Below, piece by piece: positions 3,739-63,960 of a stretch of 64,000 nt of DNA (positions within the stretch are counted from its first letter, which is position 1; every line of letters begins with the position of its first letter). The translations under genes were made by a program, and so were the position numbers. This DNA is from Macrostomum lignano (lineage: Eukaryota). The notes beneath the pieces were generated by a model that had not been told where the DNA came from, did not search any database, and saw only the letters and a list, made by a program, of their open reading frames with translations. The stretch is from positions 340,996 through 404,995 of the forward strand of contig NIVC01000650.1 in the NCBI GenBank assembly GCA_002269645.1. Reading direction: 5' to 3'.

Positions 3739-4254
3739 AGTGCTAGCAACACCGATTTTCAAAATAATGCACATGCAGGAACTTTAGTCGTGTACAAGCA
3801 GAGTTCTTGGCTTCCCCCCCCACCATGATAAAATACATGGCGACGGCCCATCTCTCAGGTCAGCAGTCCTTGCTGTCATGCAGTCAGTCTCTTACTCCGC
3901 TAAATGCAGAGCCAGTATGGATTTATGCATATTTCATATTTCATATCGCGATATCTTCAAGTATGGGAACGCTGCCGCTGCAGGCTCCCTGCTGTGCGTG
4001 TTAGGGGGTGTAATGCTGCTGACACCTATATTTAGCTGAGAATTCCCCAAGGAGCTGTAGGCCGCTGGCTCAGCAAATGTTGATTGCAGCTGTCGGCATA
4101 TGCAATTTTTTGTTTCTGGCTTCAATGTAATGTTTACACTTCCTGTATGACTGTTGCATGTACATAGCATGTGCATGTAATAGCTCAAACTACTTTCGTT
4201 ATTATTGTCAATTTATGTAATTTATAGTCATTTTTACAGCCCTACATAATAGAT

Positions 4255-4995
4255 ATAGTAACTGAGTCTATTACTAGTAACTGAGCCTATTACTAGTAAC
4301 TGTGTCTATTACTAGTAACTGAGCCTATTACTAGTAACTGAGCCTATTACTAGTAACCGAGTCTATTACTAGTAACTGAGTCTATCATTAGTAACTGAGT
4401 CTATTACTAGTAACTGAGTCTATTACTAGTAACTGAGTCTATCATTAGTAACTGAGCCTATTACTAGTAACTGAATCTACTACTAGTAACTGAGTTTCTT
4501 ACTAGTAACAGAGTCTATTACTAGTAACTGAGTCTATCTCTAGTTACTGAGTCTATTACTAGTAACTGAGCCTATTACTAGTAACTGAGCCTATTACTAG
4601 TAACTGAGCCTATTACTAGTAACTGAGCCTATTACTAGTAACTGAGCCTATTACTAGTAACTGAGCCTATTACTATTACTAGAGTTTCTTACTAGTAACT
4701 GAATCTACTACTAGTAACTGAGTTTCTTACTAGTAACAGAGTCTATTACTAGTAACTGAGCCTATTACTAGTAACTGAGCCTATTACTAGTAACTGAGCC
4801 TATTACTATTAACTGAGCCTATTACTAGTAACTGAGTTTCTTACTAGTAACTGAGCCTATTACTAGTAACTGAGCCTATTACTAGTAACTGAGCCTATTA
4901 CTATTAACTGAGCCTATTACTAGTAACTGAGTTTCTTACTAGTAACTGAGCCTATTACTAGTAACTGAGTTTCTTACTAGTAACTGAGTTCATAT
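4255..4995. repeat. Minisatellite, 19-bp unit (ACTGAGCCTATTACTAGTA)
   Basis: Direct tandem units, each with the palindrome TACTAGTA. Confidence 0.95.
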
Positions 4996-5479
4996 TACTA
5001 GTAGATGAATCCAATACGAGTAACTATTTCCAAAAACCTGTTTAAAACTTGAAGCTCATCTGAACTTTGCTTTTTCTGTATTTTCTGTGTATCTGACCAT
5101 CAGGATTTCCCTAATCTATGTCTGCAGTCGAAGTTCAATGTCTCAAACACGAGCTATTTCGAAGAAATTGTCCAATTTCTAGTTCGCAAAAGTCTTAAGC
5201 CACTCGCTGGGATTTGAGTTGCAGAAAGCTGATAGCACCCGACCCAGTTTTCAGGCCGCGTCCGCTCGGCTGCATCAGAACTTGATCTGGCTTTTCCGCA
5301 TGAAAAGTTTTCTTTCTCTGTAGCGAGTCTTTGACTATGAATTCGAGTTTGAATTCGCCTTGATGCGCGAGACTGTCTCGCAGCTTTTCTGCTTTGAGGA
5401 AAATCCCAGTTTTCAGACTCTCCATTGTCTATTGATTGCTCAGCCATTTGTCTGCCTTTGTTCGACTAATTTTTTTCTG

Positions 5480-5761
5480 ATTGATTGATTACCTGCTTGC
5501 TTTCTTTCTTGCTTGATTGATTGATGGACCGATTGGTTGATTGATTGGTTGATTGATTGATTGATTGATTGATTAACTGAGTGGTTGATTGATTGATTGA
5601 TTGATTAGCTGATTGATTGATTGATAGATAGATTGATTGATTGATTGATTGATTGATTAGCTGATTGATTGATAGATAGATAAATAGATAGATTGATTGA
5701 TTGATAGGTTGATTGATTGATTGATTGACTGATTGGTTGATTGATTGATTGATTGATTGAC

Positions 5762-5798
<37 letters not shown>

Positions 5799-6822: not shown

Positions 6823-16939
<10,117 letters not shown>

Positions 16940-36009: not shown

Positions 36010-37425
36010 CATGCAGTGTCAATCTGTTACAGCCAGTGTCAGTCAGAATCAGCCAGTGTCCGTCTGTTACAGCCAGTGTCAGTCTGTTACAGCCAGAGTC
36101 AGTCTGTTACAGCCATTGTCAGTCAGTGTCAGTCTGTTACCGCCAGAGTCAGTCTGTTACAGCCAGAGTCAGTCTGTTACAGCCAGAGTCAGTCTGTTAC
36201 AGCCAGAGTCAGTCTGTTACAGCCAGTGTCAGTCCGTTACAGCCAGTGTCAGTCAGTTACAGTCAATGTCAGTCCGTTACAGCCAGAGTCAGTTAGTTAC
36301 AGCCAGTGTCAGTCTGTTACAGCCATTGTCAGTCAGTGTCAGTCTGTTACAGCCAGTGTCAGTCTGTTACAGCCAGTGTCAGTCTGTTACATCCAGAGTC
36401 AGTCTATTAAAGTCAGAGTCAGTCTGTTACAGCCAGTGTCAGTCTGTTACATCCAGAGTCAGTCTATTAAAGTCAGAGTCAGTCTGTTACAGCCAGTGTC
36501 AGTCTGTTACAGCCATTGTCAGTCAGTGTCAGTCTGTTACAGCCAGAGTCAGTCTGTTACATCCAGAGTCAGTCTATTACAGCCAGTGTCAGTCTGTTAC
36601 AGCCAGTGTCAGTCTGTTACAGCCAGTGTCAATCTGTTACAGCCAGAGTCAGTCTGTTACAGCCAGAGTCAGTCTGTTACAGCCAGTGTCAGTCCGTTAC
36701 AGCCAGTGTCAGTCAGTTACAGTCAATGTCAGTCCGTTACAGCCAGAGTCAGTTAGTTACAGCCAGTGTCAGTCTGTTACAGCCATTGTCAGTCAGTGTC
36801 AGTCTGTTACAGCCAGTGTCAGTCTGTTACATCCAGAGTCAGTCTATTAAAGTCAGAGTCAGTCTGTTACAGCCAGTGTCAGTCTGTTACATCCAGAGTC
36901 AGTCTATTAAAGTCAGAGTCAGTCTGTTACAGCCAGTGTCAGTCTGTTACAGCCATTGTCAGTCAGTGTCAGTCTGTTACAGCCAGAGTCAGTCTGTTAC
37001 ATCCAGAGTCAGTCTATTACAGCCAGTGTCAGTCTGTTACAGCCAGTGTCAGTCTGTTACAGCCAGTGTCAGTCTGTTACAGCCAGTGTCAGTCTGTTAC
37101 CGCCAGAGTCAGTCTGTTACAGTCAGTGTCAGTCTGTTACAGCCAGTGTCAGTCTGTTACAGTCAGTGTCAGTCTGTTACCGCCAGAGTCAGTCTGTTAC
37201 ATCCAGAGTCAGTCTGTTACAGTCAGAGTCAGTCAGTTACAGCCAGTGTCAGTCTGTTACACTCAGTGTCAGTCTGTTACAGCCAGTGTCAGTCTGTTAC
37301 AGTCAGTGTCAGTCTGTTACCGCCAGAGTCAGTCTGTTACATCCAGAGTCAGTCTGTTACAGTCAGAGTCAGTCTGTTACAGCCAGAGTCAGTCAGTTAC
37401 AGCCAGTGTCAGTCAGAGCCAGCCA
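36010..37425. repeat. Minisatellite, 20-bp unit (AGTCTGTTACAGCCAGTGTC), ~70 copies
   Basis: Tandem units ending just upstream of cyclin H. Confidence 0.97.
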
Positions 37426-37482
37426 GTGTCACAACAGCTGACCCGTCACATGCCCGCAGCCCCAGCTCAAACAGCATCGCCC

Positions 37483-38403
37483 ATGTTCAGCACGAGCAGT
37501 CAGAAGCGGCGGTGGCTTTTCGAGTCGCCAGACGAGCTGGATCAGCTGCGGCAGGACTGCCACACCCGAGCAGTGCGCGACTTCGCCCACAGACACCAGC
37601 TGTCTCCGGCTGACGCAGAGGCGCAGGCCCTCACCCAGGCGGAGGCCAACCTTCTAGTTAGTCAGTACGCCACTGTCCTTGTCAACACCTGTCGATCATT
37701 CAAGCCCGACCTGCCGCCTACTGTCACCGCCACTGCCGTTCATTATTTTCGCCGATTCTACCTGCTCCACTCACCCATGGAGGTGCACCCCAGAGATGTA
37801 CTTTTCACCTGCCTGTACCTGGCCTGCAAAGTGGACGAGTTCAGCCTCTCGATCGGTCAGTTTGCTGAGAATATTCCTAGAAACAAAGAGAAATACGTTG
37901 ACCTTATACTCAACTCGGAGCTGTATCTGATCGATAAGCTGGGCTTCGACCTGATTGTACACGCTCCATTTCGTCCGCTGGAAGGCCTGCTACTAAAAGC
38001 AGCAGCCGCCCTGCCCGGCTCCATCGATTTGCTCGGTCGCAAAGCCGTGGATTTTGTAATTCTATCCTTGACCTCTGATGCGGCGTTTCTGTTCCCGCCT
38101 GCTCAGATCGCTCTGGCCGCGTTTGTTGACTCGGCCGAAGGTCTGGGCCTGGACGCTGGCCAGTTTGTGCTCGGCCAGCTGTGCGACGGCGATGCCGGCT
38201 CCAGCAGCAAGCTGATGACCAGAATTCGCCAGCTGCTTCGGGATTTCCCCGTTGCCGAGGGCGGCGGAGGTGGCGCTTCGGAAGCCCTGCGGCTCATCGA
38301 CCGGAAGTTGGCCGTGTGCCGGGACCCCGCTGGTGATCCGGACTCGCAGCTGTTCAAGGACCGGCGGGCTCGGATTCAGGAGGATGCTGGCAGATTTCTG
38401 TAG
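37483..38403 (+). CDS. CCNH: Cyclin H (CAK/TFIIH subunit), intronless, 306 aa
   Basis: MFSTSSQKRRWLF N-terminus; cyclin box FKPDLPPTVTATAVHYFRRFYL..SPMEVHPRDVLFTCLYLACKVDEF; LIVHAPFRPLEG; FLFPPAQIALAA. An in-frame ATG at 37450 would add 11 aa. Confidence 0.96.
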   Translation: MFSTSSQKRRWLFESPDELDQLRQDCHTRAVRDFAHRHQLSPADAEAQALTQAEANLLVSQYATVLVNTCRSFKPDLPPTVTATAVHYFRRFYLLHSPMEVHPRDVLFTCLYLACKVDEFSLSIGQFAENIPRNKEKYVDLILNSELYLIDKLGFDLIVHAPFRPLEGLLLKAAAALPGSIDLLGRKAVDFVILSLTSDAAFLFPPAQIALAAFVDSAEGLGLDAGQFVLGQLCDGDAGSSSKLMTRIRQLLRDFPVAEGGGGGASEALRLIDRKLAVCRDPAGDPDSQLFKDRRARIQEDAGRFL

Positions 38404-50806: not shown

Positions 50807-53022
50807 TGATGTAACCGCCCTTGTCGCCTGTCCGCTCCGTAGAGAGACGAACGCATGACTAGAGGGGCCAATGACCGTAGGCTGCCTATGACCGGGCAAT
50901 GACCTGACGGACCTCCAGCACCAGACTGTCCCGCCCACATGATTAGTAGCTTTGGTAGCGCTTCGTGACCAGAGGGCCAAGGACCCACATGGACCCCACC
51001 TGTAGCCAAGGTGCAATAGTTGGTCACTCGGTCATAGTATGACCGAGTGGCTGCCACCACTCTATGTGACCTGGCGCACCTGGATCTTTCTACCAGACCT
51101 CTCGAGGCTAGAGCCCCGCCTGGATTGGTTACCAGGGGATTTAGGCTAACAGGGGAGACGCATGCAGCCGAGTACAGGGACTCTGCTTGGGGCATGATCG
51201 GGAACTCTGGGCTCAATCCTGGAGGATTTCTCAGCAGGGGATCCTTTGTGGCTGTGAGCGAGGCTGACTTGCGACTTTGATTACTAAGAGTAGTATGAGG
51301 CGAACATGTACTGTCTACAGTTTAGATTGCTCAGGGCGAAGGGACGCGTTAGCATGGGGTTGCAACCTTCCTACTGCCATTCTGTGCCAAGACTCGCTAA
51401 TCCCTCTACTGCACGCACACGCGGCCCCGCAGCACGCACTCACAGGCGGGCTTTGCACGGGGAGAGGCCATTAGCTTACCCAAACTTCCTTATGCTTTGC
51501 CACCCCGGGAGAAAGGCTTAGCAAGCCATGAGTGAAATGATGGTGAAAGATTGAATAATGATGAAGTTAGTTAATAGTTAATAATTAGGCCCTTAGGCAA
51601 ATAAGCAGGCAATTAGGCGGCTTCACTATTGAGTAAAATACAGCAAAAGATACGGTATCACAATTGGCTCAGCTCTCTAATCAGACAATGGAAAATAGGC
51701 AAACCCCGGATAAGCAAAGGCAATTAGAGCACAAATTAGTAGCAGGAACTTACCGGCAGCTGCACAGAGAGAGAGAGAGGCGGAGTGACCGAGGGCGGCT
51801 GTAGGCTGCAGTCAGGCAGACGGTGAAGCGGCGATGCGCTGGAGCGACGAGGCGCTGATGTAGATCAGGCGATGCTGATGATGCTGGGCGGTATCAGACC
51901 GCTGGCCGATAGGCGAGCTCACTTGGGGAGCTAAGGATAACTTGGCGGTAACAGACCGCGGGCCGGCAGGGATTCGTCTTATAGACGAATGGGTCAGAAC
52001 TCAATCTGACAGCAAGTCCAAAGAAGGACGAGGAGAGGAACAGAGATAAACTCAGTTGAGTATTCTCATGCCGAAATCGCTTCCTTTTATAGACCTCACA
52101 GCCGCCTCCTCAAGGTCGTTACCATGGCTCCCTCTCTCTGATTGGCTGCCGGCAGAATGACGTCAGAATGAGTCATGATGAGAAGCATGAGACCGGCATA
52201 GCAACATGAGAAATCGGGAAATTGCGCAATCCGGAGGTGGGGTGGGGGGATAATTGGCGCAGCGGGTGGTCGCGAAAGTGTTGCGCAAGCAAACATTGAG
52301 AACAATAGGGCTGGGGTCGAGAACAAAGGAATTGGAAATCGGGGATAATTGGGGAAAACTGAGAACAATGGAAAAGTAAACATTGGAGAAAAGGTGATAA
52401 TTAGGTGCGAAAACGAGAACAAAAGAAAGAGAAAATCGGAGAAAATGTGATAATTGGTGGGGTCGAGAGAACAAAAGAAGCAAAAACGAGAACAATAGAA
52501 GCGGAGGTGGGGTGGGTGTCACATGAGAAATTTGGGAAGGAGAACAATAGCGTGAGAAAAGGTTGCGCAAGAGAGGGGGATGAGTCATCGATGAGTCACC
52601 GAGGGGGAGAAGGGGTCACACGACTTGCGTCACCGTTTGGGAGTTTGAGAGGGGATGGGGAGACGGTGAGCACACAAAGTACTGTAAGTAGACACAGGGA
52701 AAGAGGGGACAGCGCAGGAAAAGAGTGCAGAGGGAGACAAAAAAAGGGAGGAGGTAGAGAAAGTACAGGAAGAATAGGGCGGGAACAGAAGAGATAGGGT
52801 AGAGGGGGAGGTACAGAAAGGGGTAGGGGCTCCGGAAAGGCAGGTGTGGCGGCAGGAGAGACGGGACCAAGGCAGCAGGAGGGTGCAGCAGAGCGGGAGT
52901 CTCCAGGCCCGGTCGGAGACCTGGCCGAGTCTCGACAGCTCTGTGCAGAGGGTGCACGGGATAGGAGGCACTTTCGAAAAAGTTCCCATGCCCTATCCCG
53001 CGACCAGAGCGTGGTTACATCA
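50807..53022 (-). repeat. 3' LTR (2216 bp)
   Basis: Direct repeat of 61748-63960 with fewer than about 10 differences seen by eye, mostly homopolymer indels; TATAAAAG at 52084-52091 and CCAAT at 52140-52147 on -. Confidence 0.97.
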
Positions 53023-53039
53023 CACCCCCACTGCCTTTT
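53023..53039 (-). other. Polypurine tract
   Basis: AAAAGGCAGTGGGGGTG on - immediately before the 3' LTR. Confidence 0.75.
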
Positions 53040-53626
53040 GTGACGGAACTGGTTCCGTCATCATCACTGCCCAACATGGAACCACACAGACGGGAGCGGG
53101 ATCTCAACCGAACGTGAAATCACAGAATTAACAAACCGCGAGCGGGAATGGAAAAAGGCGATAAAATAGAGGGGATAGCAATAAATTCACAAAACGAGAT
53201 ACATAGGTTGGAGTGCAATACAGAATTTCAAAAATTTCAACTGTTGCTGTGGCTAAAGTGGGAGGGGGGAAACACAGACAGCGCAATAGTAGGGAGAAAA
53301 ATAGCGAATTGTCAACAATAAATTATCATAATTGGATAGAAGCGCAGCTGGGAAAGAGAGGAAACGGGGAAGGGTGAGGGAAGTGGGGAAAAAGAAGGGG
53401 GAAGGGTTGCTAGCACACAGCCAAGGGCAGAGCCTCGGGGAGAATGACGATTACACAGGGGAAAAATACTAATGCAGCGCAGTAAATTAATAAGCTAATT
53501 TCGCCGGGAGTTCAACCGCACGGAGGCCTAGCGTCCTTGAAGGCTCGGACCCCGCTTCAGCCAGTCAGAGGGCTTCGGGGCGATCGGTTGTAGGCTGGGA
53601 GGCGCCGCGCCGTGCGCTGGCCACTG

Positions 53627-53740
53627 TATAAAAGGCGCCACTGATAACGGGAGCCGGCTGCCTGCAACCTACACGGAGTCGCAGTTTCCAACCAAGGCAC
53701 TCAGCGCGATTTTCCAAACTATACAACTACTCGGTAAGTC
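53627..53740 (+). promoter_or_regulatory. Antisense TATA promoter and non-coding first exon inside the LTR element
   Basis: TATAAAAG at 53627-53634 after a GC-rich stretch; CG|GTAAGT donor at 53733/53734. Confidence 0.5.
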
Positions 53741-54081
53741 CCATCACCAACCTGATTTCCTTTCGCCTATACGTTAAACGAAATCTACCCACTCGCCATG
53801 CCTTTCGTTTTAAACTGAGCCAATTGCAGTAATAATATATGGCCTTTCTTACGGTAAAAGTAGTGAGCAGCCAACACAGAGCCATTTTTAGGAATTTTTA
53901 GAATAATGACACAACAATGACTCGTATATTGGTTATTAAAGTTTAAAAATGAATATTATGGAAGAACCGAATATTAATAGGATAATTTCACACACACACA
54001 CACGACAAACACACAACGCAAGGGGGCGGAAAGGCGGGTCGGACCGGCCGGCGGACGTCGCTCAGCAGGCAGTCAGCATCC

Positions 54082-55431
54082 TTACTCGAAATGGGCCTCT
54101 TGATTTAGCTGGTACGGGCCATATGCCGCCACCTGAGCCATGGCACTTGCCCATGCTTCCACATAACGTTGGGCTGCCGCGGCCGTGAGCACCACTCGGT
54201 GCCATCGGCTAGGCAAGATGTCGTTGCGCAGCACGCCCCTCAACTGCGGCAGAGTCGGGATGCCCAGGGCTTGGCATTGGACGACGAAGGCCGCATTCCG
54301 TACTTGTTGCAGCCGTGTCAGAGTTGGTGCAGACAGGGGCGGCTGCGCGATTGCAAAATGCTGCAAAGTGCCACGGGGCACCTCGGCCAGGCCCGCGTAG
54401 CCGGGCTCAACGTCGCCCAGGGCCGCCAACACCCACCCACAGCGGCGATTGAACCGTTGCGAGAGAGTGGCGGCCCAGGCCACTGTGGCAAACGGCGCAT
54501 AGAGGAGGGGCGCAGAGGCCGGCGCGGAGGCCGCAAGAATGCCGTCGTGGATGACGAGAGCCTCTTCCCATTCGGCGCCCTCGCTCAGGAAGCCCCAGAG
54601 CAGCCCTGGCAGGTCCGCAGGAAGCATGCCCCAGCGGCTGGCCAAGCTGGCCAGGCCAATCAATAGCCGGGCTCTCTGGGTTGGTGTCAGTTGTCTAGTC
54701 ATCTGAGAGGAGGCTGCGCAGCTGATGATCACCTTCTTGTAGACCGGCCGATCGCAGGTGCTGAAGATTGCTGTGATGGGGGCACAGGACGGCGGCCGGG
54801 CTGTCAGGTGTGATGGTTCCTCATCCACAACCTTGCGGAGGAACTTGGCGGCCTGCCGGACTAGGTCGCCGAGGGCGTATTTGTAGGCGCTCTGGGCCGC
54901 TGCCTCGATGTACATTAACAGCGTATTGTCAACCAATCCCAGCAGGGCCGCTTTTGACAGGATGAGCAGACAGGGCCGGTCCAGGTTGTCGCGAAGTTGG
55001 CGCTCTAGAGTCGCATGCCTGTCCTCGGCCTGGAGTGGGCCATGATAGGACTCAGGCCCGACCCAGTGCACCAGATCCATAGCTGTCGCCGAAGGTTCGC
55101 CAGCCACCTGACCCCAATCGACTTCTTCTCTTTGCAGGGCGATGTCCACACTTCGGCGGCTGTTGGGCAGAACATCACGCAGGCGGCGGGCCGCCTCGCC
55201 GAATTCGGCCGCCAGGTCCGAAATGTCCGCGGTGTCGCCCCCAGCATTGGCCGGGTCGATTGTCTCGTCACCTTCTTCGACCCTGGCGGAGGCCGCCGCT
55301 GGCGGCTCGGGGCCGTCCTCCGCCTCTTGGATGGCGTCACGGGGCCGCTTTCGGCTAACTGGGCTGGCAGGACGCTCAGACGGTAAGCTGGAGCATAGCT
55401 GAATTCGATTGATGGTAGGCTTCGTGTCCAT
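54082..55431 (-). CDS. ORF3: unrecognised 449-aa protein carried by the LTR element
   Basis: Long intact ORF with ATG. Acidic/Pro-rich N-terminus with NLS-like RKRPR, then ~330 aa of apparently helical sequence. No signal peptide and no RT/IN/env motifs recognised. Confidence 0.75.
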   Translation of the reverse strand: MDTKPTINRIQLCSSLPSERPASPVSRKRPRDAIQEAEDGPEPPAAASARVEEGDETIDPANAGGDTADISDLAAEFGEAARRLRDVLPNSRRSVDIALQREEVDWGQVAGEPSATAMDLVHWVGPESYHGPLQAEDRHATLERQLRDNLDRPCLLILSKAALLGLVDNTLLMYIEAAAQSAYKYALGDLVRQAAKFLRKVVDEEPSHLTARPPSCAPITAIFSTCDRPVYKKVIISCAASSQMTRQLTPTQRARLLIGLASLASRWGMLPADLPGLLWGFLSEGAEWEEALVIHDGILAASAPASAPLLYAPFATVAWAATLSQRFNRRCGWVLAALGDVEPGYAGLAEVPRGTLQHFAIAQPPLSAPTLTRLQQVRNAAFVVQCQALGIPTLPQLRGVLRNDILPSRWHRVVLTAAAAQRYVEAWASAMAQVAAYGPYQLNQEAHFE

Positions 55432-56842
55432 GTCAAGCTGGATAGTTCATAGAATGCTTCAGCGATTGAAGGACAGAATGATTTCTCTGATTGATGATTT
55501 CCAGCTCTGGCAGGCGTGGGTCTTCTTATAGTGCCGGGGCTGGCTTCCCATTGGTTGAGCACATTGGGAGGCACACCTGCTGCGGCCGGGGTCGCCGTTG
55601 GCTTGGGACCGCTCGCTCTAGTCTCCGTGCGCTCTGATTGGCTGGTTCCGCCGCTTCCTGTTTCCTCACCTGTGAGCAGGGGGCAGACCCGAGACCACCT
55701 CCGGTCGCGCCCGCGGCAGATCCGTACTCCAGCCGACAGAGATCGCACTCCCACCTCACATGCACACATTCAGATCAGGCACACAAATTAATTTGGTTAA
55801 TATGAATAGAAGAGGGATTTGGGAGATTAGACTCCGGAGGATAAATGATGATGCGGCCCAACTCCCTTCGATTTCTTCCTTCAACGCCACGCGCACGCAG
55901 TTCTCATCCATGCCTCCGAGACCCTCATAAACTTAACAGCCGAAAGAATTCGAAAGAGGAATTAATCATTAATTTGACTGCCACCAGTTTGATGTACTAT
56001 TATAAAAGAGAAAGGGGAACCTACCACCATCTTGGCGCATTACCAAAGAAAAGAAAAGGAGGATCAGCCACCATTTTGAGAGAGGTTGCTAGGGAAAACT
56101 GCCACCAATTGTACATTAACAGGGAAGAGAAAGAGGGAACCCGTCACCAATTAGAGTGGATTGCCCGGGGAAACTGCCACTATTTGCCCTTCTACCAGAG
56201 GAGAGGAAGACGAAAAACTGCCATCCTTAGAGGTGTATCATTAAAAGAAGGCGGGGAAGAAGGCTACCACTACTTGATCACCTAGAGCTCAAGGGAAGGA
56301 GAGGGAATGAAGAAAGGAAGAAACCCCCAGGAAGGCCACTACCACACGCCATAAAGTTAAAATCCCCATCTATCTACATCCTAATACCCGGCTAGTTCCC
56401 TACTTCTATTTCATCCCTTAAATTCTCATTTTCAGGATTCCGGCCGCTAGTAGCCGAGCCCATCCTTGAAGAGGAGTCCGACTACGAAGCGCCCGAAGAC
56501 AGCCATTCAGAGCCGGACGCCCCCTCTGATTCTGGGCCGGCTGCGCCATCTGGTGACATAGGCGCCGCGGCTCCCGGGCCATGCGACCGCCGGGCCGCCA
56601 GCGAACCAGCGTCCGGGGCCGGTTGGCATCCGGTACCACCGCCGTTGTCAGCCCGAGCGCACGCTCCGCCGCCGGTCGCCGCGGTGACGCCCGTGGCTGC
56701 CGCTCCACAGCCCTTGCCAACCCCTGTGGTGGAGACCGACGGCTCCTGGCATTTGGTCGTGCTGTCGACGGCCCTAATAGCCGGTCTCACAATGCACTGG
56801 CTACTGCTCTTGGAGCTATTTCTGCGGCTTCCCAACTGCTGA
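55142..56842 (+). CDS. Candidate spliced antisense ORF, 215 aa, Arg-rich N-terminus and C-terminal hydrophobic anchor
   Basis: Acceptor TTCTTCTCTTTGCAG|55138, ATG 55142, donor ACG|GTAAGC at 55382 (phase 1), acceptor TTCTCATTTTCAG|56436 in matching phase, TGA at 56840-56842. Confidence 0.45.
55523..55641 (-). promoter_or_regulatory. Internal promoter for ORF3 (two CCAAT boxes and TATA)
   Basis: On -: AGCCAATC (CCAAT 55637-55641), ACCAATGG (55550-55554), TATAAGAA (55523-55530), ~90 nt upstream of the ORF3 ATG. Confidence 0.6.
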
Positions 56843-57428
56843 TGCTGGTGGTTCTTAATGCTTACTTACTAATTCTGAACTATCTGTCCCCATAACTTGA
56901 CTTTAATTACTTACCTGACTTTACATTGACTAAACCACTGGCCTACTCTAAACTAATTGCTGCCCCATTTGCCTGATAAACTTAATTACATTGAATGCCC
57001 CCCCTATTGCCTCATCGAAACCAATTAAAAGTTTCCCAAAATCGGACTTTCACAAAGTGTGAACAAACACACGAAATCAGACCTAAAGGTGCTAATTTCC
57101 TACGGTCCCAGACTTCCATTGTTCCCAGAAAATCTTAAACAGCGGGGCAGGACCTCCTGTGGAGCAGACCCATAGAAATTTTACTAGTTTCCAAGTTAAT
57201 ATTTACTGATAGGGAATTAACGCATACTGTACGGGCCTAATTTTCGAGCTAAAATCTTAGATATTTAAACAACACCAACGAGCACGAGGTCACAACATAA
57301 ATTCGAGTAATAGAGGGCATACGTAAATACGCGAAAAGCGGTCTCCAACGGGGCAACACGAGCAAAATTTCGACACGCGAATCGGGGGGGGGAATTAAGC
57401 AATCACTGGCTAGCTACCGATCTGTTAC

Positions 57429-57944
57429 TCAGCGGGGGTCGAATGGGAGACTCACACCTAGCAAGTAAACCTTTTCTGTTCGATAGTCTATGATAGCATG
57501 CGTACTGGCTAGAAAAGCACTACCCAGGAGGGAAACTGCTGCTGAATTGCCAACGACCAGAAAGAGGATTCTCACCTCTTCTAGCCCAATAACTGCTGTG
57601 AGGGTGGCCTGGCCTAGCATCTCTAATTCATTGCCCGTGTAGGACACGGCCTTCACACATGGGGGCTCCAGGGCCTCCACACTCTGTCCGGTAATTTTAG
57701 TAAAGTCTTTGACTGTTAGCAAAGACAGCGCACTGCCCCCATCTACCAGGAGGCGGGTGGGAACATTCTCAATTGGCAACTCTACAACAATATCTCTCCC
57801 GCGTTGTCCTCTAGCTGGTCTTGGCTGATAGAAATCGGGTACCTTCTCAAATCTAAACTTCTTGCTGGGCGGACGTGGCAGGTTAAGCTGGGCCCTAGAG
57901 AGGGAACGGGGCTGAGTTCGGGCCGGGCCATTCAGCCCTCCCAC
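57429..57944 (-). CDS. Retropepsin-type aspartic protease in the -1 frame of gag
   Basis: LLVDGGSALSLL active-site motif and C-terminal SLLGSAFL; overlaps the gag end; stops at 57429 with no RT following. Confidence 0.88.
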   Translation of the reverse strand: MGGLNGPARTQPRSLSRAQLNLPRPPSKKFRFEKVPDFYQPRPARGQRGRDIVVELPIENVPTRLLVDGGSALSLLTVKDFTKITGQSVEALEPPCVKAVSYTGNELEMLGQATLTAVIGLEEVRILFLVVGNSAAVSLLGSAFLASTHAIIDYRTEKVYLLGVSLPFDPR

Positions 57945-57953
57945 GGGTTTCCC
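57908..57953 (-). other. -1 programmed ribosomal frameshift signal
   Basis: G GGA AAC slippery heptamer in the gag frame (57947-57953), 8-nt spacer, GGGCUGA/UCAGCCC stem. Confidence 0.75.
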
Positions 57954-59377
57954 GAACCCGGGGGCTCTTCAGGCGTGGAAGGAGGAGGCATCAGAGCTTG
58001 CGCGCGCAGCTGGGCGAGCCTCTCCTGCCTCTCCCTGGTAGCCTCGTCTAACATATCTCTGCCCCACTCCTCTAAATCTTGCCTATGGCGATCAGGTGGC
58101 GCACGAAGCTGCAATTGCTGCTGCTGCACACCCGGCGCCGGCGGCGTGGGCGCCTCCTGAATTGCAAGCGGCGGGGGCTGGGGTTGGCGCCAGTTCCTAC
58201 TGCTATTAGAGCCGCCCTGCCCCTGCCTCCAGTTCCTGTTGGGAGTGGCGGGGCGAGGGGGCCTCATCTGCTGGGGCAGCTGGGCAACAGACTCTGCTGT
58301 CGCCTTCATAGTTTCATTGAGCTGCACCAGCTGGTTGCGCAGATCCTTTTGCGTTTGCTCTAGCGCGCCCAACCTCTCTTGCATCTCTGATAGGCCGTCA
58401 CCGTCCTCCTCCGTCTCGTCAGCTTCCTGGTTCACCATCCTGACCCACTTGCGAGGGGGCCTGGGTGGCTGCTGAGGTTGCAGACGGACTTCGGTGCGGG
58501 ACTCAGACCTGGGCGGGCCACTACTGTCCCATTTCCCGGCTAAGTCTGCGGCTTCTAACAGGGCTTGCTGCTGTTCTAACACCTGCTCAATTGTCTGCCA
58601 GCGACGGCTCAACAGATCTTGTCTGACCTGGCGGGGGAGCTTAGCGTGTTCCAAGTAGGTGTACACGATTTCTTGTTCTCTCTGCTCACCCTGAATCTGA
58701 GGAAACATGGCCGTTATCTGAGATCTTATCATAGCAGCAAAAGCACTATGTGATTGGCCGGGTTTCTGGCTCAGATTCTTCAGCTTATTTCTCTTAGCCA
58801 GATCAGTGTTGGCCTCGCCCAACTGCTCTCCTAATCTAGATACGAACTGCTCAAAGGGCAATTGCCCGTCCAATCCTAAGGCTAAGTTCTGAAATTCACC
58901 TGGGAGGTGCGAGATGAGCACCTGCTTCCTAGCCTGATCTCCTACAGTTCTCTCCGCGTCCAGCTTGTAGATCATTCTCTCTACCCATTGCACAAAACAG
59001 TGTTCGCCGGGAGAGAACTTTTCTACGTAGATTTTCGGCCTCTGGGCGTCTTGGCCCATGTTTAGCTGGTTAAACGCATTGGCTATAGCGGCAACTAAGT
59101 CTCCTAGCTGCGGGACTGCCTGAGGAGGATTCTGGGCTGCGTCCGGGGGAGCAGCGGCGGCTGCTGCGCCACCCTGATTGGGAGCGGGAGCTGCTACTCC
59201 TTCATCTGGTTCCTCAACTACTACTGCTTCTGGAGGCTGAGGGACCTGGTTACCAGCGGCTGCGGCCATTGCGGCTGCGGGGGCGGCAACTGCTGGGGTG
59301 TCAGCGGCCGAGGGTGGTTGACCAGGGGCGTCTGCGCACACAGCTTCTACGACCCTATCTCCACGCGCCCGTGACAT
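57932..59377 (-). CDS. Gag-like protein, 481 aa
   Basis: Ala/Pro-rich N-terminus; capsid-like core (EKFSPGEHCFVQWVER; LKNLSQKPGQSHSAFAAMIR); coiled-coil and RP/Q-rich C-terminus; no CCHC knuckle; located between the PBS and the protease. Confidence 0.85.
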   Translation of the reverse strand: MSRARGDRVVEAVCADAPGQPPSAADTPAVAAPAAAMAAAAGNQVPQPPEAVVVEEPDEGVAAPAPNQGGAAAAAAPPDAAQNPPQAVPQLGDLVAAIANAFNQLNMGQDAQRPKIYVEKFSPGEHCFVQWVERMIYKLDAERTVGDQARKQVLISHLPGEFQNLALGLDGQLPFEQFVSRLGEQLGEANTDLAKRNKLKNLSQKPGQSHSAFAAMIRSQITAMFPQIQGEQREQEIVYTYLEHAKLPRQVRQDLLSRRWQTIEQVLEQQQALLEAADLAGKWDSSGPPRSESRTEVRLQPQQPPRPPRKWVRMVNQEADETEEDGDGLSEMQERLGALEQTQKDLRNQLVQLNETMKATAESVAQLPQQMRPPRPATPNRNWRQGQGGSNSSRNWRQPQPPPLAIQEAPTPPAPGVQQQQLQLRAPPDRHRQDLEEWGRDMLDEATRERQERLAQLRAQALMPPPSTPEEPPGSGNPWEG

Positions 59378-61726
59378 GTGAATGCCGGATAGCTGGGGGA
59401 GTACCCACTACCGGGAAGGAAAAGAAAAGAAAACCGGGGCAACTACAGGTAAAGACCGAAAAGTTGATCCGAAACACACAAACACACTCACACACACAAA
59501 CACAGACAAAACCACACACTTGCGGCGTCGAAGAAAACAAATTGAAAAACGGGTGGCTCCACATAATTCCATTTAGGCAGTCCTAACGGCTTCACTCGGC
59601 AAAGCACACTGACTCAAACTGCGGCTACCACTACCAGTTGTCTATGGCACATCCTGACAGGGAAAAATTGGCTATTCAGAGAGACTTGACCTTCATTTTG
59701 CGGCCATGCTAGGGAACCCAAATGCCGACCGTAAACGGACTTACGGCACCTGTACAAATTCTCCCCTAGGGTTGCGCGCCGGACCCCATTTCCTTAAGAA
59801 AGCTACTACGAAGAAGCGTTGGCGCCTGGACCCAAAAACCCAAGTGGCGGGAGCAATCCCCATGGAGGTCCTCCCACTTTACTGCCCTTGCACAGCCGGA
59901 AAACCGTCGGAGTCCAGTGGGGCTTCCACCTCAGGACTACCAATCTTGTACACGCAGCTTCACAAAAGGCGGGAATCCAGCTCCCCTACGTCTAGCAGAA
60001 TCCACAAAAACCAAGACCTCCCCCTTCTGTTCAGAGCGAAGGCGCGCAGCGGGAGTCCAGACTAAACTGTCCCCGAAGTTTTCAGGTTAGGCGGATTACA
60101 AGCCTGAAACTCTCGCCCGCTTTCCTAGGATAAACAGACCTAAGTGAGTATCTTCCTGAAATGCTTGCCCCTCCGATACTCCACCTTTGCTGCAGCTCGA
60201 AATAGCATACTTGGGACCTTTATCTGATGGCGGAGAAAGTCCTACAGTTGTCAGCCTCTCCACTTTACTGTACTTGAACGCCCGGTTCTACCAGGAGACA
60301 GCGGTACCTCCATCTAGGTTATTCCAAGTTGCCAGAGACGTCAACCCGTCTTATTGACCTTGCGGGGCACTGGGGTGGCACTCTATGTACCGGGGCTTTA
60401 CATTAGGGGACTGCATGCAACCCTGCGTCTAAGCGCTTAGTGGGCTGCAGTGGCCAGAGGGGAAAAGAGTTGCGCAATAGCGCCTTCCTGGGCCAGGCTG
60501 ACAAGTCGGGCAGGAGCGCCGTTCTACCGGGTCGGGCTGATTGGCACACCCACCTCCCCTATCAGACTGACAGCAGGGGGGAGGAATTACTAAAGGAGGA
60601 GAATGCAGCAGGAAACATTACGAGATCACTGGGGGCCACCAGACTTCCAGTACACCATTCCAATACTCACTGAACTCCACTATCAATAGGATACTATGGG
60701 ATCTACTATTTCCAGCCACTGCACCAGCCCAAATGCAACCAAAGCAGTTACTACCGGGTCTGCAATACAGTGGGGAGAGTCAGCAGACACGTTGGGATCG
60801 AATCCCAGCCATGAAGGCACCAGGGGTTACCGCAGAATTCAGGTCCGGGCTGATCGCAGGTATTCCATAGGAGGTGACACTTTTTTTAGCCCGAGATTTT
60901 TGAGTCACACTGATACCCTACAGAGATACAATCACACCGCTATTCCCATTCCTGCGAGACTTTGGTATCCCCCAATGTTTCCAAGGCCATGACTACTGCT
61001 TCCCTTACTATGCATATATAGCGAGTTCCCCATAGCCCTTGATAGCTGTTCATTCTAATGGACAAACAAAACACGCTCCGGTCTCTACGCATTTCTAGGA
61101 TTAACTGAGCGATCAGGGAGAGCGACTGTTACACTCCCCCGAGTAAAAGAAAGAGGTAGGACAAAGGAAAGAAATGCTTCGCTTCCAGCTTCCCTGTGCT
61201 TGCGTGATGAGGCTTCCGTACCTGGCTGGCTGTCCACCTCAACACTCACACAGTTCTGCTGTAGGCTAGGCGAGAGAAAGAAAGGGAGGGGAAATAAAGC
61301 ATATTACCATGAAATAGAAAGTGAGTCCGGAAAATTCACTTTCGCAGTTCTTCACACACTCCGTTACCAGGTAGCTATTCTGATTGTAATCAAATCCGCT
61401 CGTCTACCACTTCACACTTTCTAGCGCTGAAACTGATCGGCTAAATTAATTTTAAATTGAATCAGGGGCTTTTGGCGAATGAATGAATTTGGAAATTTCG
61501 AATGAATTGAACGAATTCGCAGCCCGAAAAATTTGAAAAGTTACATTAATATTTTTGGATTTTGTTGCCTCACGCCATGGGAGAAGAGAATGACGATTGG
61601 CGATTTTTACGATTGGTAGATTTAGACATGGCACTCTTTGCGCTTCGGCCACCATTCTGAGGGATGCCACAGGTGCGCTTGTCACATCTAAACCACCAGT
61701 CCGAAACTCAGCGCTGTTTGCACCAG

Positions 61727-61744
61727 ATCCCACCGCTGCCACCA
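61727..61744 (-). other. Primer binding site complementary to the tRNA-Leu 3' end
   Basis: The + strand reads ATCCCACCGCTGCCACCA, the 3'-terminal 18 nt of eukaryotic tRNA-Leu(AAG/UAG) including CCA, 3 nt from the 5' LTR. Confidence 0.88.
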
Positions 61745-61747
61745 TTT

Positions 61748-63960
61748 TGATGTAACCGCCCTTGTCGCCTGTCCGCTCCGTAGAGAGACGAACGCATGAC
61801 TAGAGGGGGCAATGACCGTAGGCTGCCTATGACCGGGCAATGACCTGACGGACCTCCAGCACCAGACTGTCCCGCCCACATGATTAGTAGCTTTGGTAGC
61901 GCTTCGTGACCAGAGGGCCAAGGACCCACATGGACCCCACCTGTAGCCAAGGTGCAATAGTTGGTCACTCGGTCATAGTATGACCGAGTGGCTGCCACCA
62001 CTCTATGTGACCTGGCGCACCTGGATCTTTCTACCAGACCTCTCGAGGCTAGAGCCCCGCCTGGATTGGTTACCAGGGGATTTAGGCTAACAGGGGAGAC
62101 GCATGCAGCCGAGTACAGGGACTCTGCTTGGGGCATGATCGGGAACTCTGGGCTCAATCCTGGAGGATTTCTCAGCAGGGGATCCTTTGTGGCTGTGAGC
62201 GAGGCTGACTTGCGACTTTGATTACTAAGAGTAGTATGAGGCGAACATGTACTGTCTACAGTTTAGATTGCTCAGGGCGAAGGGACGCGTTAGCATGGGG
62301 TTGCAACCTTCCTACTGCCATTCTGTGCCAAGACTCGCTAATCCCTCTACTGCACGCACACGCGGCCCCGCAGCACGCACTCACAGGCGGGCTTTGCACG
62401 GGGAGAGGCCATTAGCTTACCCAAACTTCCTTATGCTTTGCCACCCCGGGAGAAAGGCTTAGCAAGCCATGAGTGAAATGATGGTGAAAGATTGAATAAT
62501 GATGAAGTTAGTTAATAGTTAATAATTAGGCCCTTAGGCAAATAAGCAGGCAATTAGGCGGCTTCACTATTGAGTAAAATACAGCAAAAGATACGGTATC
62601 ACAATTGGCTCAGCTCTCTAATCAGACAATGGAAAATAGGCAAACCCCGGATAAGCAAAGGCAATTAGAGCACAAATTAGTAGCAGGAACTTACCGGCAG
62701 CTGCACAGAGAGAGAGAGAGGCGGAGTGACCGAGGGCGGCTGTAGGCTGCAGTCAGGCAGACGGTGAAGCGGCGATGCGCTGGAGCGACGAGGCGCTGAT
62801 GTAGATCAGGCGATGCTGATGATGCTGGGCGGTATCAGACCGCTGGCCGATAGGCGAGCTCACTTGGGGAGCTAAGGATAACTTGGCGGTAACAGACCGC
62901 GGCCGGCAGGGATTCGTCTTATAGACGAATGGGTCAGAACTCAATCTGACAGCAAGTCCAAAGAAGGACGAGGAGAGGAACAGAGATAAACTCAGTTGAG
63001 TATTCTCATGCCGAAATCGCTTCCTTTTATAGACCTCACAGCCGCCTCCTCAAGGTCGTTACCATGGCTCCCTCTCTCTGATTGGCTGCCGGCAGAATGA
63101 CGTCAGAATGAGTCATGATGAGAAGCATGAGACCGGCATAGCAACATGAGAAATCGGGAAATTGCGCAATCCGGAGGTGGGGTGGGGGATAATTGGCGCA
63201 GCGGGTGGTCGCGAAAGTGTTGCGCAAGCAAACATTGAGAACAATAGGGCTGGGGTCGAGAACAAAGGAATTGGAAATCGGGGATAATTGGGGAAAACTG
63301 AGAACAATGGAAAAGTAAACATTGGAGAAAAGGTGATAATTAGGTGCGAAAACGAGAACAAAAGAAAGAGAAAATCGGAGAAAATGTGATAATTGGTGGG
63401 GGTCGAGAGAACAAAAGAAGCAAAAACGAGAACAATAGAAGCGGAGGTGGGGTGGGTGTCACATGAGAAATTTGGGAAGGAGAACAATAGCGTGAGAAAA
63501 GGTTGCGCAAGAGAGGGGGATGAGTCATCGATGAGTCACCGAGGGGGAGAAGGGGTCACACGACTTGCGTCACCGTTTGGGAGTTTGAGAGGGGATGGGG
63601 AGACGGTGAGCACACAAAGTACTGTAAGTAGACACAGGGAAAGAGGGGACAGCGCAGGAAAAGAGTGCAGAGGGAGACAAAAAAAGGAGGAGGTAGAGAA
63701 AGTACAGGAAGAATAGGGCGGGAACAGAAGAGATAGGGTAGAGGGGGAGGTACAGAAAGGGGTAGGGGCTCCGGAAAGGCAGGTGTGGCGGCAGGAGAGA
63801 CGGGACCAAGGCAGCAGGAGGTGCAGCAGAGCGGGAGTCTCCAGGCCCGGTCGGAGACCTGGCCGAGTCTCGACAGCTCTGTGCAGAGGGTGCACGGGAT
63901 AGGAGGCACTTTCGAAAAAGTTCCCATGCCCTATCCCGCGACCAGAGCGTGGTTACATCA
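61748..63960 (-). repeat. 5' LTR (2213 bp)
   Basis: Copy of 50807-53022; TATAAAAG at 63024-63031 (-); splice donor CCG|GTAAGT at 62695/62694 (-). Confidence 0.97.

Follow-up and report, generated by a model that had tools for sequence, protein, structure and literature searches.

A spliced antisense gene wrapped around an accessory gene of a flatworm LTR retrotransposon

Results

A three-exon antisense gene surrounds and overlaps ORF3

We analysed a window of 64,000 nucleotides from the flatworm Macrostomum lignano (contig NIVC01000650.1, positions 340,996 to 404,995), whose minus strand carries a 13.2-kb long terminal repeat (LTR) element with a gag-like gene, a protease frame and an accessory gene, open reading frame 3 (ORF3). 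An initial annotation had proposed a three-exon gene within this element on the opposite strand, overlapping ORF3 and spanning its promoter. Its four plus-strand splice signals, TATA box, ATG and frame of 215 amino acids all lie where it had placed them, and the ATTAAA signal sits at 57024-57029 rather than 57023-57028. That the gene is real and spliced we regard as virtually certain: GT..AG joints fall at the predicted bases of both introns, and the reading frame is under codon-level selection, measured as the ratio of non-synonymous to synonymous change (dN/dS). The features concerned are the following.

53627-53633, plus strand: antisense TATA box TATAAAA, kept in the 86% identical copy L051 and in 5 of 5 checked copies of a partner element (see below)
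53655..53733, plus strand: exon 1, non-coding; joint in run X13, 5' end placed from the TATA box
53734..55137, plus strand: intron 1, 1404 nucleotides; GT..AG joint in X13
55138..55382, plus strand: exon 2; joints on both sides and dual-frame test
55383..56435, plus strand: intron 2, 1053 nucleotides; GT..AG joint in X8, X10, X13 and X9
56436..56842, plus strand: coding part of exon 3, 134 codons and stop; dN/dS and alignment
57024..57029, plus strand: candidate poly(A) signal ATTAAA, kept in L051, L056 and L059
54082..55431, minus strand: ORF3, 449 amino acids; conservation and homologues
55524..55641, minus strand: ORF3 promoter motifs (TATA 55530-55524; CCAAT 55550-55554 and 55637-55641), kept in L051 and L053

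Exon 1 contains no ATG and ends at a donor (TCG/GTAAGT) after 53733. Intron 1, closed by the acceptor TTTGCAG at 55137, encloses the 3'-terminal three quarters of the oppositely oriented ORF3. From the ATG at 55142, 80 codons of exon 2 are overprinted on the ORF3 N-terminus with third codon positions shared, up to a phase-1 donor (ACG/GTAAGC) after 55382. Intron 2 ends at the acceptor TTTTCAG at 56435, and the spliced frame closes with a stop at 56840-56842. The overlap has the predicted geometry, with the 5' coding region of ORF3 in exon 2 and its start and predicted promoter in intron 2. The TATA box is conserved and exon 1 is spliced; transcription may start from a promoter of the gene's own inside the element, at a site deduced from the TATA box, and the mRNA would measure roughly 0.93 kb. 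A coding role of exon 1 was considered and rejected: the frame leading from exon 1 into exon 3 is open, but it has no ATG, no such joint was seen, and dN/dS favours no particular frame (0.32 vs 0.46).

Both introns are removed in RNA-like contigs

The two junctions that the initial annotation offered as its check, 53733 to 55138 and 55382 to 56436, were both found in RNA-like contigs, in one and four of eight runs, respectively. These eight, from 24 listed runs, were examined as contigs, their RNA status, which is on record for no run, being the tool's guess; contigs carry no strand, ends, level or cell type, and the plus strand is inferred from GT..AG polarity. The second joint comes from three studies, with depths against unspliced sequence of 31/20 (X8), 28/9.5 (X10), 10.5/5.8 (X13) and 6.9/5.6 (X9), and the first joint reaches depth 9.0 in X13 against 14.7 unspliced. 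Runs X1, X2 and X14 yielded neither joint, an absence from contigs that proves nothing (X14 has a depth of only 2-6). Neither was present in the DNA-like run X16, where cover of the element is continuous and both introns stand at a depth of about 200-220. A deletion copy as source of the joint was also rejected: a DNA search of the genome with the element gave 47 matches (40 of 65 candidates were scored), none of which lacks exactly intron 2. The contigs continue past the candidate poly(A) signal.

A public automatic gene model, P0001, joins exons 2 and 3 in the same frame. The only database proteins containing exon 3 are three chimeric gene models labelled Macrostomum lignano. We also observed a GC variant of donor 2 (window 55384) in the genomic copy L019, which is carried by a single unspliced X10 contig, as if donor-2-mutant copies stayed unspliced.

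Purifying selection acts on the predicted frames

Among near-identical loci, acceptor 2 was kept in 30 of 30 and donor 2 was GT in 19 of the 20 covering it, although at 98-100% identity such retention says little. Exon 3 is present at full length and at least 98% identity in 30 of 87 matches, many others being frame-split pieces. Diverged alleles are more informative. Against L051 (86%), exon 3 shows 25.5 synonymous and 15.5 non-synonymous differences (dN/dS 0.20), whereas four other frames give 1.07-2.01; the wobble-sharing antisense frame is low as well (0.29) but is interrupted by stops. Adding L056, a third allele with 72% amino-acid identity that aligns without an indel, yields 0.33 and 0.34, and among the window, L051 and L056 selection is supported at p values of 1e-6 to 1e-5. 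The last 38 codons, encoding the hydrophobic tail, reach 0.13-0.14. Exon 3 is thus under purifying selection in exactly the predicted frame.

Conservation of both frames in 55142-55382 had likewise been set as a check, and it held. Copies of 86% and 72% identity retain the acceptor, ATG, open reading frame and donor of exon 2, and donor 2 changes from GTAAGC to GTGAGT in both diverged copies while the overlying ORF3 residues change. In a dual-frame test pooling four comparisons from two families (the second described below), wobble changes silent in ORF3 but altering the antisense protein numbered 0 of 32 in the overlap vs 81 of 476 outside it, at an optimistic p=0.005; doubly silent changes showed no such depletion (56 of 225 vs 262 of 1269). 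It is very likely that the antisense frame is translated.

The predicted product ends in a hydrophobic segment

The initial annotation likened the product to a tail-anchored membrane protein. Hydropathy and conservation bear out the hydrophobic C-terminus, and the anchoring itself is a prediction, which we consider likely. Residues 1-80 are basic and Ser/Ala-rich (12 Lys and Arg vs 3 Asp and Glu), residues 81-125 acidic, and residues 126-180 Pro/Ala-rich; residues 186-206 are hydrophobic and followed by nine more. The Kyte-Doolittle peak is 2.02 at 187-206, the 19-residue peak is 2.0-2.15 in 3 of 3 alleles scored, and nothing exceeds 0.9 in residues 1-80, leaving a single C-terminal hydrophobic segment as in tail-anchored proteins, where it lies within about 30 residues of the C-terminus and a signal peptide is lacking. 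All 3 alleles scored begin with MST. Conservation is strongest in the tail and in an acidic YxxP motif, which contains the sole tyrosine of the protein:

56747..56839, plus strand: hydrophobic segment at the C-terminus with its short tail, a predicted membrane anchor; hydropathy and dN/dS
56468..56494, plus strand: acidic YxxP motif EEESDYE(A/V)P, in 4 of 4 alleles

The protein matched no Pfam family. Judged by its composition, it is most likely a tail-anchored low-complexity adaptor or motif scaffold.

A partner element carries the missing polymerase half

Neither reverse transcriptase (RT) nor integrase was found in the window element by ORFs or Pfam, its coding content being gag, protease and ORF3. 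A gag search identified a partner element (contig C936 of the genome assembly, locus L067, 4373-9031), with nine full copies and one partial copy among 14 matches. The two elements have in common the LTR, the 5' untranslated region (UTR; window 59168-63960) and a 3' block (53023-53856), at about 99%. The 3' block includes the antisense TATA box, exon 1 and donor; exons 2 and 3 are missing from the partner. Its single ORF of 1543 amino acids encodes RT, RNase H and integrase in gypsy order and begins with a remnant of Gag and with the linker found behind the protease in this genome's complete elements. No protease was detected in it by Pfam, motif or tblastn. Conversely, copies of the window protease at 97% identity or more all lie in frames of at most 186 amino acids, none leading into a long pol (among 150 of 158 matches listed; 150 of 959 candidates scored). 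Of the Ty3/gypsy hallmarks, two direct LTRs with TG...CA ends and a primer-binding site are present, and a protease-RT-RNase H-integrase pol within one element is absent from both the window element and its partner. We consider it fairly probable that the genome is obligately two-part, each half needing the other to move.

A sister family repeats the split and the antisense layout

A second pair with the same split and unrelated LTRs lies at contigs C151 (L070), C3095 (L080) and C1757 (L082). Its gag-protease element is 32% (Gag) and 40% (protease) identical to that of the window, without LTR similarity. Its partner is likewise protease-less and 54% identical to the first partner, LTRs and UTRs being common to the sister pair (95%). 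Just two donors in 3.5 kb of the sister antisense strand exceed 7 bits, and they mark a three-exon layout, with predicted joints from 4196 to 5774 and from 5862 to 6464 in L070. Exon 1 and a TATA-like box lie in the 3' block, the middle exon bears the ATG and covers the ORF3 start, and the last exon is phase 1. The middle-exon donor lies 46 nucleotides from the ORF3 ATG in the sister and 49 in the window, and falls at matching ORF3 codons. All 6 copies that cover them retain the acceptor, ATG and donor, and dN/dS of the last exon is 0.19-0.21, after exclusion of loci L098, L104 and L105, which are spurious alignments or truncated (0.86-1.07).

The sister last exon encodes an RG-rich stretch and a conserved LDSIQE motif, which we take to be of the PP2A-B56 docking type. 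A signal-peptide-like frame in sister exon 1 was rejected, its ATG being lost in 3 of 6 copies. The layout would thus be old and its cargo swapped or diverged beyond recognition, the sister being known from sequence alone.

Other parts and copies of the element

The two LTRs (50807-53022 and 61748-63960) are 99.7% identical. The remaining parts of the element are as follows.

50807..53022, minus strand: 3' LTR with TG...CA ends; identity with 61748-63960
61748..63960, minus strand: 5' LTR; identity with 50807-53022
61727..61744, minus strand: primer-binding site behind the 5' LTR, presumably tRNA-Leu-like
57932..59377, minus strand: gag-like ORF, 481 amino acids; position and conservation
57429..57968, minus strand: aspartic protease frame with a DGG variant motif; no RT behind it

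No target-site duplication is evident at the window copy; duplications of 4 bp flank all 4 of the other copies for which both host flanks are visible. The gag-like ORF has no significant Pfam match and is 32% identical to the sister gag and 40% to the partner N-terminus. The protease frame, entered by a predicted -1 shift at GGGAAAC (57953-57947), gives a sub-threshold Pfam match (gag-asp_proteas, E 0.021) and is 40% identical to the sister protease, whose motif is DSG. Strong minus-strand splice motifs include donors at 62695 (LTR), 56915 (missing in L051 and L059) and 55670, and an acceptor at 59408 just before gag; no minus-strand joints of gag or ORF3 were seen in the contigs of the eight runs. 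No heat-shock element was found by the canonical pattern.

Several copies differ in structure. A subfamily (L031, L033, L035, L037, L039, L045, L049 and L050) lacks approximately window 54000-55890; its breakpoints are joined between CA-rich repeats, and in X13 and X9 a loose end marks the junction. At window 55537, inside the ORF3 promoter, L055, L057 and L063 carry an insertion of about 2.1 kb with integrase-core and zinc-finger frames; it belongs to the subfamily with the 72% exon 3 allele. L065, L066 and many short matches are short non-coding derivatives that include parts of the protease end and of the exon 3 region, 70-85% identical; they may form a dispersed repeat that arose from the window element.

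ORF3 itself is strongly conserved (dN/dS 0.07 outside the overlap). It has a homologue in the sister family (E 2e-4; 22-24% identity in alignment) and relatives in Logan assemblies (33% over 341 amino acids). Pfam gave no known domain and no solved relative emerged (best E 0.2); two word-indexed searches were blank, and an atlas search gave nothing for ORF3 and only chance-level scores (at most 0.79, to HAD-like phosphatases) for its sister. Both structure models are poor (pLDDT 33 and 43). Fold searches gave no match at E<=0.001, and the best, an SGNH-type alpha/beta fold (Z 7.4, root-mean-square deviation 3.7, 137 aligned residues), lies within the stated background and is a lead only. Two of four profile matches, to the long bacterial-type repeat proteins P0005 and P0007, were set aside as repeat artefacts. 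An ORF3 cassette at L053 (1594-3480, contig C201) is 72% identical and frame-broken, with the promoter present; no LTR or exon 3 lies nearby, and its end matches the deletion-subfamily breakpoint near 55890.

Elsewhere, window 1-50700 contains very dense minisatellite arrays (63 rows listed), among them 20-bp arrays in inverted orientation at 11046-11593 and 13196-14029. A plus-strand frame at 36757-38403, which lies behind a tandem array of 20-bp units, matches the cyclin N- and C-terminal domains (E 1e-8 and 5e-9) and is probably a host exon.

Discussion

Comparison with known systems

Plant Ty3/gypsy elements carry antisense genes termed aORF-3R, with their own promoter and of unknown function (maize Grande gene23, rice RIRE2, Silene Retand; PMC7264820, PMC11963269). 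The window gene shares with them its position antisense to gag in the 3' internal region, between the coding region and the 3' LTR; it is also conserved in most copies and without homologue outside the elements, and its conserved TATA box may mark an internal promoter like theirs. It differs in being from an animal, in having three exons and two introns, and in being wrapped around and overprinted on a sense accessory gene. Furthermore, its product has a hydrophobic tail, whereas the plant products are nuclear or contain a Transposase_28 domain. The words 'intron' and 'overlap' do not occur in the Retand paper (PMC11963269), and a review urges a search for antisense and spliced transcripts (PMC7264820). 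In the literature, mainly outside subscription journals, we found no report of a spliced, nested and overprinted antisense form.

Among retroviruses, HBZ of human T-cell leukaemia virus type 1 (HTLV-1) is a spliced minus-strand gene, and ASP of human immunodeficiency virus type 1 (HIV-1) overlaps a sense gene in the wobble-sharing frame. The window gene resembles both in strand, HBZ in its splicing and ASP in the frame of its overlap. Unlike theirs, its promoter is internal, 600 nucleotides outside the 3' LTR, and its host is a flatworm element without env; sequence similarity to these genes is not to be expected. An antisense promoter of HTLV is also cited in PMC7264820.

In design, the closest analogue is polyomavirus ALTO, together with middle T, where an overprinted frame encodes a conserved C-terminal hydrophobic domain and tyrosine docking motifs (PMC11348336). 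Overprinting, the hydrophobic C-terminus, a tyrosine motif and the lack of an enzyme domain recur here; ALTO is overprinted on the same strand, in a DNA virus, and the analogy is one of design only. Insect MDG1-group elements encode sORF2/FAST-like proteins of 63-107 amino acids on the sense strand, often myristoylated, with a central membrane segment and a basic patch behind it (PMC11952523). The likeness is that of a small membrane protein, predicted as such here, serving as accessory gene of an env-less LTR element. The antisense protein starts with MST instead of the myristoylation motif MGxxxS/T, and in place of a central segment with short ectodomain and basic patch it has its segment at 186-206 of 215 and one Arg in the tail.

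Wheat semi-autonomous elements, namely Sabrina_SA and WHAM (which encode Gag and protease) with Wilma, and Quinta with Cereba, have been described as cooperative or partly mutualistic (PMC9744471, PMC11302176). They resemble the window element in being Gag(-protease)-only, and they rely on the RT and integrase of a partner, as it probably does. The wheat partner is described as autonomous, with the protease of Cereba named, whereas the flatworm partners lack a protease, and with it a full polyprotein, in two separate pairs. Also unlike wheat pairs, the flatworm pairs share the whole LTR and both UTRs (about 99%, and 95% in the sister pair). No protease-less partner or mutually dependent gypsy elements were found described in the literature surveyed.

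What the antisense gene may do

We find it reasonably probable that this is a spliced antisense gene under protein-level selection, whose likely product is a tail-anchored adaptor of 215 residues serving the life cycle of the element. Transcription would start about 25 nucleotides after the TATA box at 53627, and translation from exon 2 at 55142. The C-terminal segment would enter a membrane and leave about 185 residues of low complexity facing the cytosol or nucleoplasm. There, as in polyomavirus ALTO and middle T, short motifs (an Arg cluster at residues 5-16, the acidic YxxP and W-x-P-x-PPP) would dock host proteins. In Heh2 reporters, targeting to the inner nuclear membrane needs a basic patch, a linker and a membrane segment in order (PMC4695851). 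The window protein resembles Heh2, by analogy only, in having first a basic patch, then a long linker and then its predicted membrane segment, and for that reason the endoplasmic reticulum (ER) or nuclear envelope would be the favoured compartment. There the adaptor would aid traffic of the particle or pre-integration complex, a role we put forward tentatively and at somewhat less than even odds. It would act in trans, on particles assembled from the Gag and protease of this element and the RT and integrase of the partner. The antisense RNA would also tie its own expression inversely to ORF3, because it crosses the ORF3 promoter and is complementary to genomic RNA. Interference between the two promoters, which the initial annotation had raised, is geometrically possible, and we consider it somewhat less likely than not.

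A number of observations weigh against this interpretation. Removal of intron 1 was seen in one run only (X13), and contigs of X8, X9 and X10 read through the acceptor at 55137 without a break; these may represent ORF3 or genomic RNA, or retained intron 1. Exon 3 compared with L059 gives dN/dS 0.57, which is not significant (p=0.14), and the pooled dual-frame comparisons share references. The Arg-rich start of the protein is also dictated by ORF3 codons. The sister last exon is unrelated to exon 3 (profile comparison probability 0.2%) and encodes no membrane segment (its hydropathy peak is about 1.0), and therefore tail anchoring is not what the layout conserves. Finally, the deletion subfamily, which is spreading and makes up eight of the fetched loci, has lost ORF3, its promoter, and antisense exon 2 with the ATG; neither gene is therefore needed in cis, which fits action in trans.

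A real and translated gene could also encode a self-limiting or host-modulating factor, acting in copy-number control or signalling, possibly at mitochondria or the plasma membrane. The N-terminus, rich in Arg, Ser, Thr and Leu, free of acidic residues and amphipathic (moment up to 0.79), has a composition that we liken to a mitochondrial presequence. The sister protein has its conserved LDSIQE motif, and ALTO reduces viral gene expression (PMC11348336); the tail, however, is not net basic, with one Arg and one Glu after the segment, and we judge such a function unlikely. Selection might instead act mainly on antisense transcription, as a switch that silences ORF3 and genomic RNA through interference or double-stranded RNA, the protein being a swappable passenger. 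Micropia antisense RNA is a reviewed precedent (PMC7264820), the layout is kept across two families while the last exon is not, and promoter, exon 1 and donor persist in partners without exon 2 or 3. Since the partner 3' block is about 99% identical, this retention may reflect recent recombination only, and strong amino-acid constraint acts on the last exons of both families and on exon 2; this explanation appears distinctly improbable.

Cryptic splicing in read-through host transcripts, with a frame that merely shadows other constraints, would agree with splice motifs near chance strength (three donors of at least 8.7 bits on the plus strand in 53023-57400 vs 1.2 expected), with runs that are RNA by guess only and with public models that use the antisense exons only in chimeras. 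The 80-codon open stretch is itself unremarkable (given that this frame has 11 stops over the remaining 352 codons of ORF3, P is about 0.08), because the antisense frame shares wobble positions with ORF3. Yet exon 3 overlaps no known gene and still shows a one-frame synonymous excess in three alleles without an indel, and the same layout, with both phases, recurs in an independent family. Frame-specific selection, conservation in the sister family and the dual-frame test largely refute this account, which we consider highly implausible. Returning to the selected antisense gene, we give about even chances to a joint reading in which these flatworm elements are obligately bipartite and the gene is an ancient regulated slot, a switch against ORF3 whose cargo here is a membrane adaptor. 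Segment 1 would comprise Gag, protease, ORF3 and the spliced antisense gene, and segment 2 a Gag remnant fused to RT, RNase H and integrase, with LTRs and packaging UTRs common to the two; the slot would have a fixed promoter, start exon and splice phases, and a swappable last exon.

Significance

These results establish that an animal LTR retrotransposon can carry a spliced antisense gene, and selection shows in both of the overlapping frames. The published LTR survey of Macrostomum lignano seeds on RT and, in the text examined, describes no such genes (PMC12801592). Annotation of this kind would not start from the RT-less half, and therefore such genes and two-part genomes could be widely overlooked. 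As the host is a stem-cell model tractable by transgenesis, the role of retrotransposon antisense accessory ORFs becomes directly testable. If the split of the protease is indeed obligate, these elements would represent a segmented LTR retroelement, maintained across two lineages that show only 32% identity in Gag.

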